Shown: in pieces, positions 5,440 to 32,930 of the stretch
Layout of the letters: each line of letters begins with the position of its first letter
Numbering within the stretch: the first letter of the stretch is position 1
Origin: an uncultured Nitrososphaerales archaeon
Lineage (GTDB): Archaea; Thermoproteota; Nitrososphaeria; Nitrososphaerales; Nitrososphaeraceae
DNA: 64,000 bases
Assembly: GCA_963695855.1 (NCBI GenBank)
Contig: CAVOHZ010000010.1
Location: 608,001 to 672,000 of the forward strand
Direction of reading: 5' to 3'
Notes under the pieces: model-generated
The model's input: the letters and a program-made list of their open reading frames with translations, nothing else
Told to the model about the DNA's origin: nothing
The model's database searches: none
Position numbers and translations under genes: made by a program

Positions 5440-5574
5440 TAATCAATTTTGTATTTTTGTTATTGGACTGACTCGATAATCGATCCAATAAACATAGGTC
5501 TATTTATTACTACGAAAACTATAGAGAAACTGTTTATTTGTCATTATCTGACATTAATAAGGTTGGAAAAGACA

Positions 5575-6417
5575 ATGAAGATTAGCGCAGATAATAAACC
5601 GGAACCTTCACTGAAAATCGAGAAACCTAATGACATTGCCAAAACGAGGTTTCTTGTAACTCCTGCAAAACTAAACGTAAGAGAATTAAATGCAGGATTT
5701 CATAAAAAACAAGTTTTAAAAAAAATCAATCTAAATATGAAAGAAAAAAAGGTAACGGCGTTCATTGGTCCTTCCGGATGTGGTAAAACGACATTAATAA
5801 GATGTCTTAACAGAATGCATGAAATGACGAACGGGGCTTTTGTTAAGGGTGAAGTAAATTTAGATAATATTAATATTTACGATCCAAAGATCAATCCGGT
5901 TATTATAAAGAGAAGAATAGGAATGGTATTTCAAAAACCAAATCCCTTTCCTACGATGACTATTTTTGACAATGTTGCATCAGGCTTAAAACTAAATGGG
6001 GTAAGAGATAAGAAGTTGATTTCACAAATAGTGAAAGAGAGTCTTGAAAATGCTGCATTATGGGAAGAGGTAAAGAATGAATTAAATAAACCCGGAATGA
6101 GTTTGTCGGGAGGTCAACAACAAAGACTTTGTATTGCACGAGCTCTAGCCATGCATCCCGAAGTATTACTAATGGACGAACCTACTTCAGCATTGGATCC
6201 AATAGCATCATCCAAGATAGAAGATTTAGTTCATGAACTAAAAAAATATTTGACTATAGTAATAGTTACACATAACATGCAACAGGCTGCGAGGGTATCA
6301 GATTACACTGCTTTTATGTTTTTAGGCGAATTAATTGAATTTGGAGAAACAAAACAAATTTTCGAAAACCCTAGGGAAGAAATGACTGAAAATTATATAT
6401 GTGGAAAATTTGGATAA
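5575..6417 (+). CDS. pstB: phosphate ABC transporter ATP-binding protein
   Basis: [47 protein letters not shown]; start set at ATG 5575 (TTG 5563 possible). Confidence 0.95.
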
Positions 6418-6549: not shown

Positions 6550-7212
6550 ATGACAAGGCTCTTAGATTTAGGTATTGATAGGATAAATAAGATATTAGAT
6601 GACATGGTACGTCTTGCAGAAAAATCTTTTATAGATGCCATTGATTCTTACAACAAAGGTACTAATTTATCAAAAAATAGTTTCAGGATTTCAGAAAAAT
6701 TAAGAATGTTGCAAGATGAGATTTCAGAAATATCAATAGAGCTTATTGCAAGATACCAGCCAGTAGCTACAGATTTGAGATTCATCAAATCATCCCTTGA
6801 AATTTCATACAATATATCAAGATTTGGACGATATTCTTTTGATATTGTTGATTTAATACAAGAAAGTGGCCCATTAGAAGATTGCGACAAATCTAGAGTA
6901 TTGGAAATCTCAAAAACTGTAAAAGAGATGATTATGATTTGTTCGAATGCGATAGATACGTGGGATATAGGAAAAGTTAAAGAACTATACCAGTTAGAAA
7001 ATAATATTGACAGAGAATATAAAAAATATCTTAGAGATATAATTCAGTCTAGTGAATCTTCATTAAACGAGACCGAAAAGAGACAGAGCTTTAATTGTTA
7101 TCTTACCAGTTTGCTTATTCTACGATATTTTGAAAGAATTTCCGATCATGCGTGTAGTATTGGTGATTCTATTAGTTATATAAAATATGGAAAATCTAGT
7201 CCTAGACTCTAA
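6550..7212 (+). CDS. phoU: phosphate uptake regulator PhoU
   Basis: ARYQPVATDLR and ERISDHA motifs; follows pstB. Confidence 0.92.
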   Translation: MTRLLDLGIDRINKILDDMVRLAEKSFIDAIDSYNKGTNLSKNSFRISEKLRMLQDEISEISIELIARYQPVATDLRFIKSSLEISYNISRFGRYSFDIVDLIQESGPLEDCDKSRVLEISKTVKEMIMICSNAIDTWDIGKVKELYQLENNIDREYKKYLRDIIQSSESSLNETEKRQSFNCYLTSLLILRYFERISDHACSIGDSISYIKYGKSSPRL

Positions 7213-7292: not shown

Positions 7293-7757
7293 ATGGAAAA
7301 GGTTAGTGATGAAGTAGTAATAAGGGAATTAGAGGAAAGTCACCTTGGAAAAGATTTCCTAGACACTCTTTCAAATTTGGGAGATATTAAAAAATTAAGA
7401 AACGATCAAAAACATATGTTAAAAATTTTTAAAAATATAAAAGAAAAATCAAGTTCAAGAATTTTTGTAGCTTTAATCGATAATAAAATAGTAGGTGCAA
7501 TTACGACAATTATTGAATACAAGTTTATTCATAATGGGGGAAAAGTCTGCCACATTGAAGATGTTGTGACAAGAAAAGGATATGAAAAATTAGGTATTGG
7601 GTCTAGTCTTATCAGAAAGGCAATAGATTTGTCCACCAAAGAAGATTGTTATAAGGTAGTACTAAATTGCTCCGAGAAAAATATCCTATTTTATGAAAAA
7701 AATGGATTTCATAAATATGAGATCGAAATGAGATTTGATATCAACAAGAAAAATTAA
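7293..7757 (+). CDS. GNAT acetyltransferase, glucosamine-6-phosphate N-acetyltransferase (GNA1)-like
   Basis: EYKFIH, HIEDVV, GIGSSLI, CYKVVLNC, FYEKNGF. Confidence 0.85.
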   Translation: MEKVSDEVVIRELEESHLGKDFLDTLSNLGDIKKLRNDQKHMLKIFKNIKEKSSSRIFVALIDNKIVGAITTIIEYKFIHNGGKVCHIEDVVTRKGYEKLGIGSSLIRKAIDLSTKEDCYKVVLNCSEKNILFYEKNGFHKYEIEMRFDINKKN

Positions 7758-8567
7758 TTGTTGGTTTTTTTTAATTAAACTAGAGGTTGAAATAACTAAA
7801 AGGATAACATTTTTGTTTATAATTTATCATATACTGAGATTAGAAATTTTAATAAATCATCGTATCCAAGATACCCCATTTGAGAATTTCCAAAGATATA
7901 TCTTTCCAATTTTGCTGTATGCATATTGTACCAATTGGCTAGAAGATAATTACTTTTATTTTTGTGATTCTTTAATTTACTAATAATAACAATATACAAG
8001 TTGTTACACATAATTCTAAAAGTAATTTGTTCAAATTAAAACATCCTATTTCTGAACTATGTAGATTCCCCTGTTTATAGACACATTGACAAATAGTATT
8101 GTATTCATAGAACATATCAAATTCAATATAATCATACGTTATAAATTGAATAGATAAAAATCAAAAAAACACCATATAACAAACTACTTTTTGATTAATT
8201 TAATAAGTCTAATCAAGAAATTAATGAATGAAGAATTTTGTCCTTAAAAGAACAAATGGTATTTCTTTTAAAATAGTGTGAATTAATAAAATTGGAAGGT
8301 TATGAGTTTTCTTGATTTTAGTTTCTATTATGAGGAACAGGTTCTTTTAAGAGCTGCAACTGTTTCTTCTTTGACAAAAATATCGTATGCTGTTTCGATT
8401 TCAAAAAGGTATAAACATATTTTTCATTGAATCTATATAAACAAATTGCAGAAGGTATATTAATAAAATTATTTTTTGGTACTTACACCAATACTGACTA
8501 TTTCAAGCAAAATATCAGACTACTGAGGAAGTAATATTAATACGTCCTTTGTTTATTTTTTTATAAT

Positions 8568-9359
8568 ATGTCAAATACACCTATCATGGTTTTTGATTCT
8601 GGAATAGGTTCTATGTCTATAATCAAGGAACTAAGAAAGGAACTACCAAATGAAAATATATTATATTTCGCAGATAGGGCAAATTTTCCATACGGAAACA
8701 AGTCACATAAAAGACTTTTAGAAATTATGAAGAATACTATTAAATACCTGGAGAGATTCAAACCAAAGATAATAATAATAGCTTCCAATACGCCTTCGCT
8801 TCAGATTTTAGATGAAATTAAAGATAAAGTTAATGTTCCTTTACTAGGTGTGAGGCCTCCTCTAAGAGAATCAGTAAAGCTAACGAAAAATAATCACATC
8901 GGAATAATGGCAACAGAATCAGCTATCAATAGTAAGGAGATAGATAAACAAATAAACGATGAAATTCCTCAAAAGATATTTGTTAATAAGTATAACGCAT
9001 CGCCGTTAATAGCCTTGATTGAAAATGGAGATTTTATCAAAAGCAGAAAGAAGATCAGAAACCAAATTCATAGAATTCTAGGGAACATTGAAGATATAGA
9101 TGTCATAACATTATCAAGTACTCATCTTCCTTTCATCGTGGATCAATTATCTGAAGAGTTTCCATCTGTTAAATTTATCGATTCCGCAAAAACGACAGCA
9201 AAAAATGTAAAACAAATTTTGACAGACAACGGATTACGTAACAAAAATAACACTGGAAGGATAAGAATTCTTGTATCGGATGGAAAAGATGAATTTCAGG
9301 AAATGTTAAGATATTTGGGCGTAAAGGAAAATGTACAAGAAGTTTTTTGGTCAATTTAG
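8568..9359 (+). CDS. murI: glutamate racemase homolog with both catalytic Cys replaced by Ser
   Basis: FDSGIG and DRANFPYG motifs; ASNT and SSTH in place of ACNT and GCTH. Confidence 0.85.
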   Translation: MSNTPIMVFDSGIGSMSIIKELRKELPNENILYFADRANFPYGNKSHKRLLEIMKNTIKYLERFKPKIIIIASNTPSLQILDEIKDKVNVPLLGVRPPLRESVKLTKNNHIGIMATESAINSKEIDKQINDEIPQKIFVNKYNASPLIALIENGDFIKSRKKIRNQIHRILGNIEDIDVITLSSTHLPFIVDQLSEEFPSVKFIDSAKTTAKNVKQILTDNGLRNKNNTGRIRILVSDGKDEFQEMLRYLGVKENVQEVFWSI

Positions 9360-9429
9360 GTAATAGCCAACGAACAAAATATATATTATAAAATTAATCA
9401 AATTAGGCAAACCTAATGTGTATTAATTA

Positions 9430-11550
9430 ATGATTAGGAAAATAAGACTGGGCATAGACGTTGGAGGAACTTTTACTAAAGCTGTTGCTATTGATATTTT
9501 AACGGGAGAGTTATTGGGTAAAATGACAGTTCCCACTACACATAATGCTGATAAGGGGGTAGCCGAAGGTATAGTACTAGCACTTAAAAATTTAATGGAA
9601 ACGTATAGCGTACAAAGATCTGAAATAGAATTAATTTCACATAGTACTACTCAGGCAGTTAATGCGCTTCTTGAAGGAGACACTGCAAAAGTTGGGATTA
9701 TTGGGATGGGAGTAGGACTAGAAAAGTCTAACGTTGTCAAGAGGACCAATATAAAAAATATTGAATTATCTTCAAATAAATATCTACATACATGTTTTAG
9801 ATTTTTAGATACATCAAAATATTTGCAAAAACAGGAAGTTCAAGAAACAATATCATCGCTAAAAGACGAAGGTGCGGAGGTTTTGGTAGTCAGTGAAGCG
9901 TATGGTGTGGATGATCCAAGCAACGAACAATACGTGATGTCATATTCGGATCTTCCTATAACTGGAGGTCATGAGCTTACTGGAATTTATGGTCTTGAGA
10001 TTAGAACTTTGACTGCTGCAATAAATGCAGGTATAATGCCAAAGTCAATAAGTACGGCTAGATATGTTGAGTCTGCTGTAAGGAACGAGAATATAATTTG
10101 TCCTATAATGATAATGAAGGGGGACGGCGGAGTGACAGACATCGAAACTTTTAAAAACAAACCTATTTTGACAATACTATCAGGACCTGCGGCAAGTGTG
10201 GCGGGAGCGTTATTACATTCTCATATTTTGCAGGGATTATTCATTGAAGTTGGAGGAACCTCAACTAATATCTCTATTATAAAAAATGGCAAACCTGAAA
10301 TTCGGTATGTTACCATAATGGATCATCCGACTTGTATTCGTTCAGTGGATGTCAGAGTTGCAGGAGTGGCAGGAGGTTCATTAATAAGAATTTCAGGCAA
10401 AAAAATTATTGATGTAGGTCCTAGGTCAGCTCATATTGCTGGCTTGAAGTATTCCTGTTTTGTCGATCCCACAGAACTTGATAACTCAAGGTTAATAACT
10501 TTTAGACCTAGTGAAAATGATCCGGATAACTATATTTGTATAGAAACAGAGTCAAAAAAATTGATAGCAATAACCAATACCTGTGCAGCAAATGCTCTAG
10601 GATTGATAAAGGAAGGAGATTATGCATCAGGAAATAAAGAGGCAGCTAAAATAGCACTAAACCTCTTGGCAGAAAGAATAGGAGTTAGTAACTATAAGGA
10701 AGCTGCAGAAATAGTATTAGGTTTTTCTATTAAAAAAATTCTACGAATAATTGAACCGATGATTAGAGAATATCAGATAGAAACAGATCAGATGTTCCTA
10801 ATCGGGGGAGGCGGAGGAGCCTCTGCGTTGGTACCGTATATGGCAAATAAGCTAGAATATCAGTTCGAATTAGCTCAAAATGCAGAGGTAATATCATCTA
10901 TAGGAGTGGCTGCAGCAATAATATATGAGGAAATAGAAAAAACCATAAGCCAACCAAAACCTGAAGACGTTTCATTATTAATTGACGAAATTAAAAAAAG
11001 AACCCTCGAAAGAGGAGCGGCACCAGAATCAATTTCAATCCAAACTGAATATATCAATGAGCGTTCATTATTAAGAGGAATAGCATCAGGAAACGTTGAG
11101 TTAGATATCGGAAAAAATAACAAAAGAGAACTGAATTTTGCAGAAGTAGAGAATATTGCAATAAAAGTTCTAGGAAGTAACAAAGTGAAACAAATCCTCA
11201 ATATGAAAAATTATTATGGATTTACCTGCGAAATAATAAAAAAGAATTTTTTTGTCAAAGTAAGGAGAACCCCGATTGTAATATTAGATAAACTAGGCAG
11301 AATAAGATTAATGCTAGAAAATGCAGAAATAATTAATGGAACGAGAGATTTAAAAACCAATATAGAATCATTAGTATATGAATATAGTAACAAAAATAAA
11401 GATGACCTGGCCCCACAAATCCATATTTTGGATGATGTAAAGATCATTGATTTTTCAAGTTTAAGCTCTCCAGAACATCTAATCGAAGCCATAAAAAAAG
11501 AATTCGATAAATTAACTGTCGAAGCCGTAACTATCATTATAAAAAAATAG
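9430..11550 (+). CDS. hydantoinase/oxoprolinase family ATP-binding (A-type) protein
   Basis: GIDVGGTFT, HSTTQAVNALLEG, SGPAAS, EVGGTST, GPRSA. Confidence 0.9.
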   Translation: MIRKIRLGIDVGGTFTKAVAIDILTGELLGKMTVPTTHNADKGVAEGIVLALKNLMETYSVQRSEIELISHSTTQAVNALLEGDTAKVGIIGMGVGLEKSNVVKRTNIKNIELSSNKYLHTCFRFLDTSKYLQKQEVQETISSLKDEGAEVLVVSEAYGVDDPSNEQYVMSYSDLPITGGHELTGIYGLEIRTLTAAINAGIMPKSISTARYVESAVRNENIICPIMIMKGDGGVTDIETFKNKPILTILSGPAASVAGALLHSHILQGLFIEVGGTSTNISIIKNGKPEIRYVTIMDHPTCIRSVDVRVAGVAGGSLIRISGKKIIDVGPRSAHIAGLKYSCFVDPTELDNSRLITFRPSENDPDNYICIETESKKLIAITNTCAANALGLIKEGDYASGNKEAAKIALNLLAERIGVSNYKEAAEIVLGFSIKKILRIIEPMIREYQIETDQMFLIGGGGGASALVPYMANKLEYQFELAQNAEVISSIGVAAAIIYEEIEKTISQPKPEDVSLLIDEIKKRTLERGAAPESISIQTEYINERSLLRGIASGNVELDIGKNNKRELNFAEVENIAIKVLGSNKVKQILNMKNYYGFTCEIIKKNFFVKVRRTPIVILDKLGRIRLMLENAEIINGTRDLKTNIESLVYEYSNKNKDDLAPQIHILDDVKIIDFSSLSSPEHLIEAIKKEFDKLTVEAVTIIIKK

Positions 11551-11874: not shown

Positions 11875-12768
11875 TTGTTAAAAGATAGTGTGGTTATCGC
11901 AGGACCAGCATCAGAGCAGTTAGCAGCTAATATTGCAAAAAGATTAAACATAAAAGTCATAAAACCTGAGCTCAGGATATTTGCAGACGGGGAAAGTAAA
12001 ATAAAGATGGAATCTGTGGAGAATAAACTATGCATAATTATTCAATCTCTTTATCCTCCTATCGACAGACACATACTGCAATTATTAATGATGATCCAAA
12101 AGTGTAGGAAAGACAAAGCATTAAAAACTATTGTAGTGGTTCCATACATGGCTTATGCAAGACAGGATAAAGCCTTTCTCGAGGGTGAAGTGATAAGTAT
12201 ATCAATCTTGGCAGAAATTATAGAATATTTTGGAGTTAATAGAGTAATAACGGTCGATATCCATAGTGAATCATCGTTATCTTATTTTGGAAATATTATC
12301 AAAAACATTTCGGCAATTCCAATATTAGCGGAATACGCTTTGCATAACATATTTCCTAATAATGTTATAATTATTTCTCCGGATTTTGGTGGATTAAAAA
12401 GAGCACAAAAATTTGGGGAAATAATACAAAGAGAAGTAACTTTTCTAAAGAAAACACGTGACAGACTAACAGGAATGGTTTCTATTGAGGATGTATTGGA
12501 TTTTAAAGTAAAAGATAAAGACGTAATTTTGGTTGATGATATGATTAGCACAGGTAATAGCATAATAAAGGCTTGTGAAGTACTAAGAAAAAATGGAGCT
12601 CAAAGAATTTTTGTAATTTGTTCTCATGCATTACTGCTTGATAAAGCGTTAGACAAAATAATACGAGCTGGCGCAACGGAGATAATCTCTACAAATTCCA
12701 TTCCCAACAGTTGTTCCAAGGTCAATCTGTCGAAAATTATATCTGAAGTAATTAGTGAGATTAGCTGA
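11875..12768 (+). CDS. prs: ribose-phosphate pyrophosphokinase
   Basis: FADGE, PYMAYARQDK, VDIHS, SPDFGG, VDDMISTG. Confidence 0.95.
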   Translation: MLKDSVVIAGPASEQLAANIAKRLNIKVIKPELRIFADGESKIKMESVENKLCIIIQSLYPPIDRHILQLLMMIQKCRKDKALKTIVVVPYMAYARQDKAFLEGEVISISILAEIIEYFGVNRVITVDIHSESSLSYFGNIIKNISAIPILAEYALHNIFPNNVIIISPDFGGLKRAQKFGEIIQREVTFLKKTRDRLTGMVSIEDVLDFKVKDKDVILVDDMISTGNSIIKACEVLRKNGAQRIFVICSHALLLDKALDKIIRAGATEIISTNSIPNSCSKVNLSKIISEVISEIS

Positions 12769-13185: not shown

Positions 13186-13908
13186 GGTCCTGTTAAGTTA
13201 ACACTATTTCACCTCCAATTTTGAATACAAGTTCATTTCTATTTTTTGCGTTGTATAGATAAACGAATAGTTTGATCCAATTGTATACATGTGATAGATC
13301 ACAATTATTCCTACTCTTTTGGTTTATACAAGGATAATAATCATCAAAACATTCTGACCTGTCTTTAAAGTATTGCATCACTCTTTCAATCAGACTTCTC
13401 TCTAAAGGAGAATGCAGTCTATGTTTTAGATGCAAAAAAGTACAGGCTTGTGGGTACCATGTACCTCCATCAGTGTAAACTGTATGTCTACCATATTTGG
13501 ATACAAGAGATTGGATAAAATTCTCTGCTACAAACATGTTTCTCTCTTCTGAGATGTAGATCCCAAGCACAGATCTGTGAACAGGTTCAATACAGATCCA
13601 CAACCAGAAATGTTGATTACCAATCTGAATTATAGTTTCATCTATGATGAATGCTGATACTCTTTTTCTCTTGTAAATCTGTAATGAACCAAATCGTTGA
13701 ATCCATTCCCAGACTGCAACATGACTTCTTTTCTCATCTCTAAAGATTACTAATGCTTTAGATGTATTCCGTAGACTCAAACCAAGAAAGTACAAATACA
13801 AAGAATACATTACTATACATGTAGATGTTCTATTTCTGACAAATCTCAATAACATATGTCAGAATAGAACACTCGCAGCTAAAGCTCTATCGTTAACTTA
13901 ACAGCACC
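13186..13908 (-). mobile_element. IS6-family insertion sequence (723 bp) with 8-bp target-site duplication
   Basis: TIRs GGTCCTGTTAAGTTAAC / GTTAACTTAACAGCACC (1 mismatch in 17); GTTAATTC at 13178-13185 and 13909-13916. Confidence 0.93.
13193..13855 (-). CDS. IS6-family DDE transposase
   Basis: [39 protein letters not shown]; open ORF. Confidence 0.92.
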
Positions 13909-14300: not shown

Positions 14301-14666
14301 TTGAGTAAGAATAAAAAGTATATTAGAACAATTACATGTATTCCAGATGATCTTTGGAATGAAATTACAAATATTTTACCGGATGAGAAACCAGACAATA
14401 CAATAGGTCGTCCAATTGTTCCATATAGAAAAGTATTTGATGGCATCATGTTTATCCTGAGGACTGGATGTCAGTGGAAAATGTTACCCAAAGAATATGG
14501 TTCAGGTTCAACATGTCATAGAAGATTTCAGGAATGGAGAGAATCAGGAATATTCGATATACTATGGAGTAGATTGCTAAAAATATACGATAACAAGAGA
14601 GGAATCAAATGTACATTGCAATCACTTGATAGCATATCCGTAAAATCACCTTTAGGGGGGCGATGA
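14301..14666 (+). CDS. IS5-family transposase, N-terminal ORF
   Basis: LRTGCQWKMLPKEYGSGSTCHRRFQEW; ends at a G6 run overlapping ORF B. Confidence 0.85.
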   Translation: MSKNKKYIRTITCIPDDLWNEITNILPDEKPDNTIGRPIVPYRKVFDGIMFILRTGCQWKMLPKEYGSGSTCHRRFQEWRESGIFDILWSRLLKIYDNKRGIKCTLQSLDSISVKSPLGGR

Positions 14667-15151
14667 CTGGACATAATCCTACTGACAGAAGTAAATTAGG
14701 CACCAAAAGACATATTTTAACGGATAAGCATGGTATTCCACTATCTGCTCTTATAACATCTGCAAATACTCACGATGTTACTACTGTTGCAATTGATACA
14801 GTTGACACCATGGTTATCAAAAAACAGTTTTCAAAATCAACAACAAAATACAGTAACAAGAACAAGAAGAAGAAACAAAATCTATGCCTTGATAAAGCAT
14901 ATCATTCCAAAGAAGTAGAACAAGAAATTGTCAAGAGAGGATATATTCCACATATACGACACAGAAGAGAAGAAAAGATATTTTGTAGAAAACATCCATT
15001 AAGATGATGGGTTGTAGAGAGAACAAATTCATGGCACAATAGATTCAGGAAATTATTTACAAGATATGAAAAGAAGGAAGAGGAGAACTATCTGGGTCTT
15101 GTAAAATTAGCAAGTAGCATAATTGTTTACAGGAGGATAATTTTTAGATAG
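14663..15151 (+). pseudogene. IS5-family transposase C-terminal ORF with in-frame nonsense codon
   Basis: GTKRHILTD, LCLDKAY, then HPLR*WVVERTNSWHNRFRKL: TGA at 15005-15007 precedes the catalytic E motif. Confidence 0.85.
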
Positions 15152-32839: not shown

Positions 32840-32930
32840 GGGCTCGTAGCGCAGACTTTCATAGGCGTAAAATGGATAGCGCGGACGCCTCCTAAGCGTC
32901 AGGTCGAGGGTTCAAATCCCTCCGGGCCCG
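32840..32930 (+). tRNA. tRNA-Arg(CCU) with a 16-nt D-loop intron at 15/16
   Basis: Removing 32855-32870 (ACUUUCAUAGGCGUAA) gives a 75-nt cloverleaf; anticodon arm GACGC-CUCCUAA-GCGUC, T arm GAGGG-UUCAAAU-CCCUC. Confidence 0.93.

Follow-up and report, generated by a model that had tools for sequence, protein, structure and literature searches.

This article concerns a gene of the glutamate racemase (MurI) family in a window of 64,000 nucleotides of archaeal DNA, positions 608,001 to 672,000 of contig CAVOHZ010000010.1 (assembly GCA_963695855.1) from an uncultured member of the Nitrososphaerales. "The window" always means this whole stretch. The gene lies at 8568..9359 on the + strand and encodes a protein of 263 amino acids. 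Both positions that hold the catalytic cysteines of MurI hold serine instead. The proteins that share this Ser/Ser signature form one deep branch of single origin, and in ammonia-oxidising archaea (AOA) their gene is a single-copy, near-universal core gene. There is roughly an even chance that the Ser/Ser protein is an active, cofactor-independent proton-transfer enzyme that forms no functional pair with the gene beside it, which encodes an ATPase of the hydantoinase A type (HydA-like).

The Ser/Ser branch of the MurI family

Several lines of evidence place the window protein in the MurI family. It matches the Pfam family PF01177 (E 3.1e-13) and scores 162.2 bits against the NCBIfam model TIGR00067 (glut_race), above the curated cut-off of 146.65. 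A model of its structure, made with AlphaFold2 from an alignment of 64 relatives (pLDDT 94.7, pTM 0.91), predicts the two-domain alpha/beta fold of MurI. In a Foldseek search with this model, ranks 1-46 are all glutamate racemases, and the TM score to Bacillus anthracis RacE1 (2DWU) is 0.90. An own hidden Markov model run over all 5,886 stop-to-stop open reading frames (ORFs) of the genome finds a single MurI-family ORF, so that no canonical MurI stands beside the Ser/Ser gene.

In a phmmer alignment with Bacillus subtilis RacE (1ZUW, with bound D-glutamate; E 3.1e-31), IASNT of the window protein aligns with IACNT and SSTHLP with GCTHYP. Ser73 (codon TCC, 8784..8786, in IASNT) and Ser184 (codon AGT, 9117..9119, in LSSTH) occupy the exact positions of the two catalytic cysteines of MurI, and the count of cysteines in the translation is zero. 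The original prediction, made from the letters alone, had described the missing cysteines, both serine codons, an intact ORF and the motifs FDSG, FPYG, NT and TH; direct reading and alignment bear out every one of these details. The protein also has Asp10, Ser11, Tyr42-Gly43, Asn74-Thr75, Thr116, Glu152 and Thr185-His186, which in MurI act as helper residues and substrate contacts.

Compared with MurI/RacE (EC 5.1.1.3; 1ZUW, 2DWU), the protein is alike in fold, length and the DSG, PYG, NT, E152 and TH motifs. It differs in that both catalytic cysteines are serine, in further branch-specific changes near the site (G15S, G35A, A76P, P145S, G183S and Y187L), in small insertions near positions 132-135, 156-159 and 174-175, and in its separate place in the family tree. 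Its host also differs in being without peptidoglycan. The domain Mur_ligase_M, which also covers CapB-type ligases, has no match in the genome, which is 99.87% complete (the control was positive in 12 of 14 genomes). Because of this, supplying D-glutamate for peptidoglycan synthesis does not apply as a role here.

The gene is widespread in one part of the archaea. It is found in 113 of 121 genomes of the window's family and in all 81 of the high-quality Nitrososphaeraceae genomes. In a tally of the class, restricted to genomes at least 85% complete, it occurs in 18/18 genomes of Nitrososphaeraceae (labelled f1, identified from named hits), 121/131 of Nitrosopumilaceae (f2), and 6/6 and 3/3 of two further families, f3 and f5. 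It was found in none of 42 genomes of the other families of the class, f4 included, and in none of 172 genomes from other families of the phylum. G035, G077 and G227, three genomes marked as unpublished, are part of the family and class tallies and of the adjacency counts given below, and no conclusion rests on them. The four families with the gene are taken to be ammonia oxidisers, which is consistent with a 2025 paper in mSystems (PMC12363236).

The two serines are strictly conserved, well beyond anything expected by chance. A search of a collection of 5.8 billion proteins found 643 homologues, of which the best 120, all of Nitrososphaeraceae type and down to 53% identity, were examined. Together with the query, all 121 have serine at both sites, and D10, S11, G12, G14, S15, D36, P41, Y42, G43, T75, P76, T185 and H186 are likewise invariant. 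At the level of DNA, all 50 AOA loci that were read are Ser/Ser (30/30, plus 20/20 chosen for closed genomes; families f1, f2, f3 and f5).

A broader search of cluster representatives found 12,204 proteins at E<=0.001. Among the best 150, the nearest share the signature FD[SA]GxGS / FPYG / [AG]SN[TA]PS / LSSTHLP, and the more distant carry the canonical FDSGxGG / ACNTA / GCTHYP. Of these 150, 137 are 230-350 amino acids long: 46 are Ser/Ser, 90 Cys/Cys and one Cys/Ser. Across 64 diverse Ser/Ser proteins, D10, G12, G14, S15, D36, P41, Y42, G43, S73, S184, T185 and H186 are invariant, and E152 is conserved in at least 90%. Every member of the branch that was examined has Ser73 and Ser184 in place of the two cysteines expected of MurI.

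Evidence that the Ser/Ser proteins arose once is provided by a maximum-likelihood tree of 97 proteins, from which the columns of all three signature motifs had been removed. Fragments and the odd rows P0127, P0149 and P0156 were left out, and the Cys/Cys rows were thinned at random by two thirds. A single branch splits 71 Ser/Ser rows from 26 Cys/Cys rows, with ultrafast bootstrap (UFBoot) and SH-aLRT supports of 100 and 99. The Ser/Ser proteins are one deep branch of single origin in the MurI family.

The codons tell a similar story. In all 50 AOA loci codon 73 is TCN, with all four codons seen, and codon 184 is AGY, with both codons seen. Among 82 loci of bacterial type, site 73 is TCN in all 79 that are readable, while site 184 divides into 41 AGY and 40 TCN, a pattern that indicates one switch of serine codon class at this site. 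Each class is one step from the cysteine codons TGY; conversion between the two must pass through a codon for another amino acid. Measured against orthologues of 97% identity (dS about 0.1, unsaturated), the ratio of nonsynonymous to synonymous change (dN/dS) comes to 0.10-0.12 in the MurI-like gene and 0.11-0.13 in the HydA-like gene, and the former value argues firmly for purifying selection on the MurI-like gene. Since functionless sites drift, whereas these two stay serine with frozen codon classes, they do not appear to be functionless.

The branch is not confined to archaea. A search with a distant member, P0130, found 1,102 proteins, and the best 120 are all Ser/Ser. Together with the archaeal counts and a dN/dS of about 0.1, this means that the exchange is not a loss local to one lineage. 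Named sources include Bradyrhizobium, Mesorhizobium, Paraburkholderia, Rugamonas, Crenobacter, Thalassospira and Sphingomonas, and the usual database name is "aspartate/glutamate racemase family protein". The bacterial clade retains both serines, Asp10, Glu152 and Thr185-His186. It alters three of the glutamate contacts of MurI (S11A, T75A and T116V), whereas the AOA proteins keep Ser11, Thr75 and Thr116. In a record of Fusobacterium vincentii, the Ser/Ser gene is accompanied, at another place, by a canonical MurI (VACNTAS, LGCTHYP) that is only 30% identical to it. Because a canonical MurI is also present, the Ser/Ser form in this species can be regarded as a paralogue with its own job.

The gene contexts in bacteria are heterogeneous, as seen in the 49 loci of at least 5 kb among 80. 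Ten of the 49 contain an Aas-like fusion, and a block in alphaproteobacteria reads pckA-chvIG-hprK-npr-[gene]-ahcY. A link to phosphoribosyl pyrophosphate and pyrimidines was suggested by the ribose-phosphate pyrophosphokinase gene (prs) in the window and on a Phyllobacterium plasmid, and by a pyr operon near the Fusobacterium gene. It was ruled out: among 82 bacterial-type loci prs turns up in just one, and the AOA copy is part of a block with the HydA-like gene (see below). In the tree, the bacterial clade (100/99) is placed among the archaeal sequences, next to f3 and f5, at supports of 89/55; if this is real, bacteria acquired the Ser/Ser gene from archaea. The deep order has supports of 65/36, and no claim is made about the direction of transfer.

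Neighbouring genes in other archaea were also recorded. In 13 of 16 loci of f2, f3 and f5 (L036-L051), a divergent Snf7-like (ESCRT-III-type) gene lies directly upstream of the MurI-like gene; its assignment is weak (Pfam E 1.2e-05). Genes of cobalamin synthesis, two for TP_methylases and one for a CbiT-like methyltransferase, also occur near the MurI-like gene in these families. No functional link to the Snf7-like or cobalamin genes is proposed, as the genes are convergent or split by a gene on the opposite strand, orientations that oppose co-transcription.

Natural loss of a single catalytic cysteine is known in the same superfamily, PF01177. According to PMC12838360, the aspartate racemase-like EcL-DER/YgeA has Thr83/Cys197 and RacX has Ala79/Cys193, and the second cysteine is needed: EcL-DER C197S is inactive and RacX C193S is much reduced. 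These proteins keep one cysteine and belong to the Asp-racemase branch, whereas the Ser/Ser proteins have serine for both bases and belong to the MurI branch. The PH1733 homologue 2ZSK matches the window protein at no better than E 1.4e-05. In the laboratory, Glavas and Tanner are said to have made the single mutants C73S and C184S of Lactobacillus glutamate racemase (in 1999), with rates that were reportedly strongly reduced. The natural change differs from these in being double, ancient, selected and accompanied by other changes at the site.

The presence of the gene in AOA has already been published. The mSystems paper (PMC12363236) treats it as a glutamate racemase whose catalytic sites are intact and whose structure matches 2GZM. 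It describes the gene as bacterial in origin and as virtually missing from Nitrososphaeria other than AOA, infers D-glutamate use from it, and assigns 32-72% of the sediment "GLUR" to Nitrososphaeria. The distribution reported here agrees with that paper, and the residues do not. No mention of the Cys/Ser exchange was found in the text searched; its figures and supplement may show the residues. No report of a Ser/Ser exchange was found in the literature searched, and within those bounds the missing thiols, the single origin and the bacterial relatives are apparently new.

The HydA-like gene and its partner

The HydA-like gene (9430..11550, +) begins 70 bp downstream of the MurI-like gene (gap 9360-9429), on the same strand, and encodes 706 amino acids. 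The product matches Hydant_A_N (E 3.5e-22) and Hydantoinase_A (E 1.7e-49) of Pfam, and its ASKHA motifs DVGGTFTK, EVGGTSTN and GGGGGAS are invariant in 16 orthologues. No Pfam model matches its C-terminal 200 amino acids. It is the sole Hydantoinase_A protein of the genome. A structural model (pLDDT 79.5) gives full-length Foldseek matches with TM scores of about 0.55 and E from 6.5e-24 to 6.9e-18. The protein has the architecture of HyuA with ASKHA ATP-binding motifs.

It shares its two domains, and over its full length a structural match, with HyuA-type subunits such as acetophenone carboxylase (Apc) alpha/gamma (5L9W), the acetone carboxylase beta subunit (5SVC), caprolactamase (6YRA) and N-methylhydantoinase (9H03). 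These proteins, whether carboxylases, hydantoinase or caprolactamase, are all known to work with a HyuB subunit. The HydA-like protein differs from such complexes in that no HyuB was found and in having an FTR1-type permease as its conserved neighbour. Hydantoinase_B has no match in the window's genome, where control genomes were positive, and none in 158 other AOA genomes (f1 0/18, f2 0/131, f3 0/6, f5 0/3). That search did detect HyuB in 12 genomes of the class that are not AOA, in every case next to a distant HyuA. The original prediction of an A-type protein with ATP motifs and without a B subunit nearby was thus correct, and the B subunit is missing from the matches of the whole genome.

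The same prediction had paired the two genes in a pathway for D-5-oxoproline or other cyclic amides. Evidence for such a pairing would be provided by finding the genes together in other genomes. In 49 of the 93 family genomes that have both (7 of 13 genera: g1, g2, g3, g6, g10, g12 and g17) they are neighbours, with order and strand conserved and 70-232 bp between them. In the other 44 (g5, g8, g9, g13, g14 and g16) they are apart; for instance, more than 700 kb separates them in three closed g14 genomes. Of the 121 family genomes, 20 have the MurI-like gene without the HydA-like gene (among them all four of g18 and six of g16), 3 have the reverse and 5 have neither.

Outside the family the association is absent where it can be compared. 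Among 131 Nitrosopumilaceae genomes, the MurI-like gene is found in 121 and the HydA-like gene in 51, which leaves the MurI-like gene alone in about 70. Nine closed genomes of Nitrosopumilaceae (G124, G132, G140, G144, G162, G164, G185, G186 and G190) show no adjacency (0/9), and no HydA-like gene lies near the MurI-like gene in 12 mapped Nitrosopumilaceae loci. In the f5 genome G263 the two genes are on different contigs, and f3 is without a HydA-like gene. No HydA-like relative was found in 80 bacterial-type loci (579 kb). Over the 158 other AOA genomes the phyletic patterns differ, with the MurI-like gene in 148 and the HydA-like gene in 67.

The gap between the genes contains a TATA-like box, AAATATATAT, at 9377..9388 (+), about 45 nt 5' of the HydA-like ATG. 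The original prediction had seen a TATA-like stretch here, and it is real and conserved: the block does not vary among six genomes of the genus, between which the proteins are just 60-97% identical. It would be the promoter of the HydA-like gene itself. Contigs from RNA libraries (runs X4, X5, X9 and X11) cover pieces of both genes, and none bridges the gap with at least 31 letters on both sides. One contig spans the whole gap (9354-9554) and includes just 6 nt of the upstream gene.

Where the two genes are together, they appear to be joined by the history of a larger block. A block of HydA-like gene, prs and a metallo-beta-lactamase (MBL)-fold gene exists in f5 and f1, and in part of f1 the MurI-like gene precedes it. 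The prs gene follows the HydA-like gene in g2, f5 and g5; where the block has no HydA-like gene, the next gene after the MurI-like gene is prs (g18, g15) or the MBL-fold gene (g9). The original prediction had itself named lack of linkage in other genomes as a refutation, and on that test the pairing fails; the standing of the MurI-like gene beside the HydA-like gene is a lineage-specific synteny and no functional pair. The cyclic-amide pathway, built on that pairing, is left unsupported.

Other parts of the proposed pathway were also sought in the genome. PxpA (LamB_YcsF) was not found. Of the capBCA genes, a CapB-type ligase (Mur_ligase_M) was not found and there are two PGA_cap matches, so a poly-gamma-glutamate synthetase has no support. 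These CapA-like matches lie at 1452531-1453370 of contig C10 (L152) and 116400-117065 of contig C2 (L153; with an in-frame TGA) of the window's genome, G000.

A much stronger association exists between the HydA-like gene and a gene for a membrane protein of 740-810 amino acids. The C-terminal domain of this protein is of FTR1/EfeU type (PF03239 E 8e-16; TIGR00145 E 5e-30), and, as in Ftr1/EfeU, it has two RExxE motifs. Of 201 genomes of the class, 68 have both the HydA-like and the FTR1-type gene and none has just one of them; throughout 11 genera that are mixed for presence, the two genes are concordant. This co-occurrence is given without a P-value, kin being non-independent. In 49 of 51 Nitrosopumilaceae genomes, and in the single f5 genome concerned, the permease gene immediately precedes the HydA-like gene, on the same strand and at most 50 bp away. 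Of 16 f1 genomes, 5 have it within 10 kb, and in the window's genome it is 407 kb from the HydA-like gene (L156 870-3305, -). The HydA-FTR1 loci (L056 2783-7106, L057-L064 and L069) often have two helix-turn-helix genes of about 110 amino acids upstream. In the one mapped g2 locus (L053), a gene for a DtxR-type iron repressor lies directly upstream of the MurI-like gene.

In Ftr1/EfeU systems the known partners of the permease are oxidases or periplasmic proteins; a cytoplasmic HyuA-type ATPase is not known among them. The pattern suggests that the HydA-like protein could be an ATP-dependent accessory of an iron-uptake module, and its conserved Cys302, Cys343 and Cys385, with several histidines, may bind metal. 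According to Shafiee et al. 2019, Nitrosopumilus maritimus SCM1 is without Fe-specific transporters such as FTR1, which fits a patchily distributed HydA-FTR1 module. A literature search on hydantoinase, Nitrosopumilus and iron found no paper.

Some members of these two families are unusual. In genus g9 the HydA-like protein has about 875 amino acids (L068 4851-7475); the match to the window protein is broken into three blocks by the additional residues, a sign of an inserted domain or an intein-like element. About ten FTR1-type matches in Nitrosopumilaceae cross one or two in-frame stops in the N-terminal half (e.g. G136, G162, G168, G203, G148, G186, G241, G258, G280 and G140). They may represent adjacent paralogues read together, a split gene or recoding.

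Function of the Ser/Ser protein

The AOA Ser/Ser protein is probably an active, re-tuned isomerase that transfers protons on glutamate-like substrates. Catalysis, a proton-relay mechanism and the substrate are what we infer here. An active enzyme is favoured over a binder because the catalytic frame is conserved while the specificity residues vary between the AOA and bacterial clades. The likeliest chemistry would be a two-base 1,1-proton transfer, as in a racemase or epimerase. In such a mechanism the hydroxyl of Ser73 would relay a proton to Asp10, and that of Ser184 to His186/Glu152; the changes G15S, G183S, A76P, Y187L, P145S and G35A could have tuned the site for this relay. A serine relay is conceivable because the single Cys-to-Ser mutants of the Lactobacillus enzyme attributed to Glavas and Tanner (1999) reportedly retain about 1/1000 of the activity. 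Glutamate or a close analogue would be the likeliest substrate in AOA, because Ser11, Tyr42-Gly43, Thr75 and Thr116 are retained, and its product would serve something other than a cell wall.

A bolder form of this proposal is that the branch is a catalytically distinct class of the MurI fold, in which oxygen-based relays (Ser73-Asp10 and Ser184-His186-Glu152), fixed once, carry out thiol-free racemisation or a new reaction. This is tentative, and somewhat less probable than its negation.

Several observations weigh against an active proton-transfer enzyme acting on glutamate. The hydroxyl of serine is a poor base, and we know of no natural cofactor-free amino-acid racemase with two serines. 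Position 74 is Asn in 93, Thr in 25 and Ile in 3 of the 121 Nitrososphaeraceae-type proteins, and Ile or Val in f3 and f5; Asn74, a glutamate contact in MurI, is thus unfixed in AOA. The ancestral substrate of the branch need not have been glutamate either, the bacterial clade having lost three contacts. A search of the PDB found no solved structure of any Ser/Ser member, and the best match there of a bacterial member is an ordinary MurI (E 1.6e-19). The gene neighbourhoods, in archaea or bacteria, reveal no apparent metabolic partner. Evidence of transcription is weak: short contigs in RNA libraries that two studies made from soil and rhizosphere, and these libraries may contain DNA.

The same fold might instead host a different chemistry, that of a hydrolase, a decarboxylase or another isomerase. 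Its substrates would be derivatives of glutamate in AOA and less polar compounds in bacteria. The superfamily PF01177 does include non-racemases, such as maleate isomerase and arylmalonate decarboxylase. Ser184-His186-Glu152 resembles the triad of a hydrolase, with Ser73-Asp10 as a second dyad, and these residues are invariant, or nearly so, across the branch. They are ringed by the six changes listed above, and the bacterial clade has changed its substrate contacts. However, His186 and Glu152 are equally invariant in Cys/Cys MurI, so that the "triad" is inherited, the AOA proteins retain the contacts for free glutamate, and the neighbours suggest no hydrolytic pathway. On balance a different chemistry is unlikely, though it deserves to be kept in view. 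The loss of both thiols of the textbook mechanism would also be explained by a pseudo-enzyme that binds glutamate or D-glutamate as a sensor, regulator or protein partner. The glutamate contacts kept in AOA and the want of pathway neighbours agree with such a role. Dead sites would be expected to drift among Ser, Ala, Gly and Thr, whereas serine is found in every sequence examined, with frozen codon classes; and even the bacterial clade, where binding residues are altered, retains Asp10, Glu152 and His186, as would be expected of conserved chemistry with a changed substrate. A pseudo-enzyme is accordingly rated as improbable, though still a serious rival. The original prediction had offered a Ser/Ser racemase or a non-catalytic glutamate binder, which was a fair framing; membership of a deep, selected clade can now be added.

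Two further explanations carry still less weight. An ordinary, efficient glutamate racemase that enables AOA to use D-glutamate, as in the text of the mSystems paper (PMC12363236), would account for the AOA presence, the non-AOA absence and the structural match (2GZM), all of which are reproduced here, and the window protein lies above the TIGR00067 cut-off. The same cut-off is missed by a Nitrosopumilaceae-type protein (P0131, 123.2 bits) and by a bacterial one (P0284, 106.2 bits), and serine is at both sites in all 12 Nitrosopumilaceae loci and in all representatives of that clade, which makes an ordinary racemase highly unlikely. The least credible explanation, and a very remote one, joins the Ser/Ser protein and the HydA-like ATPase in one pathway (D-5-oxoproline/D-glutamate salvage, turnover of poly-gamma-glutamate or scavenging of cyclic amides). 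It can draw on the close spacing in 49 genomes of seven genera, the RNA contig across the gap and the two CapA-like matches. Against these stand the separation of the genes in 44 of 93 family genomes and in other AOA families where comparable, the differing phyletic patterns, the conserved TATA-like box, the 6 nt of upstream gene in that contig, and the lack of matches to HyuB, CapB-type ligase and PxpA in the genome and to a HydA relative in the 80 bacterial-type loci. The HydA-like gene, moreover, co-occurs with the FTR1-type permease in 68/68 genomes and abuts it in 50/52 genomes of f2 and f5.

Rest of the window and significance

Upstream of the MurI-like gene lie pstB (5449-6417, named from its own translation), phoU (6550-7212, Pfam) and a GNAT acetyltransferase gene (7293-7757, Pfam). 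Between the last of these and the MurI-like gene are 810 bp of AT-rich sequence (7758-8567) without a credible ORF, which is long for such a compact region. Downstream of the HydA-like gene, prs (11875..12768, +; Pfam) is a member of the syntenic block and is unrelated to the function discussed here.

Just 3' of prs is an IS240-type DDE transposase gene (13196-13855, -). An IS5-type transposase (14301-15007, +) consists of two overlapping ORFs, DUF4096 and then DDE_Tnp_1, and may be frameshifted or a broken copy. Rfam reports a tRNA match at 32864-32922 (+; 37.3 bits, model positions 9-63 only), and ARAGORN finds no tRNA in the window; the match may reflect an intron-bearing or oddly structured tRNA, or just part of one.

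In textbook accounts, cofactor-independent amino-acid racemases work with two thiols, and this mechanism also underlies the design of MurI inhibitors. An ancient, strictly conserved branch with two serines implies either that the fold works without thiols or that it carries out an unrecognised reaction. There are consequences for annotation as well: these genes are counted as glutamate racemase in metagenomic surveys, and the D-glutamate cycling inferred from them may rest on a protein without the catalytic residues.

For the organisms, the tie between the HyuB-less ATPase and an FTR1 permease suggests that some AOA have an iron-uptake module, patchy in distribution, that has yet to be described. 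The MurI-like gene is one of few bacterial-type genes present in nearly all AOA and in none of the relatives searched, and it bears on the acquisitions made at the origin of AOA, a lineage of nitrifiers of global importance. If the branch is a distinct, oxygen-based class, the published reading as a normal racemase would be wrong in mechanism and perhaps in substrate, and the enzyme would have been kept throughout the history of AOA as a core gene and spread in bacteria as a paralogue of MurI.

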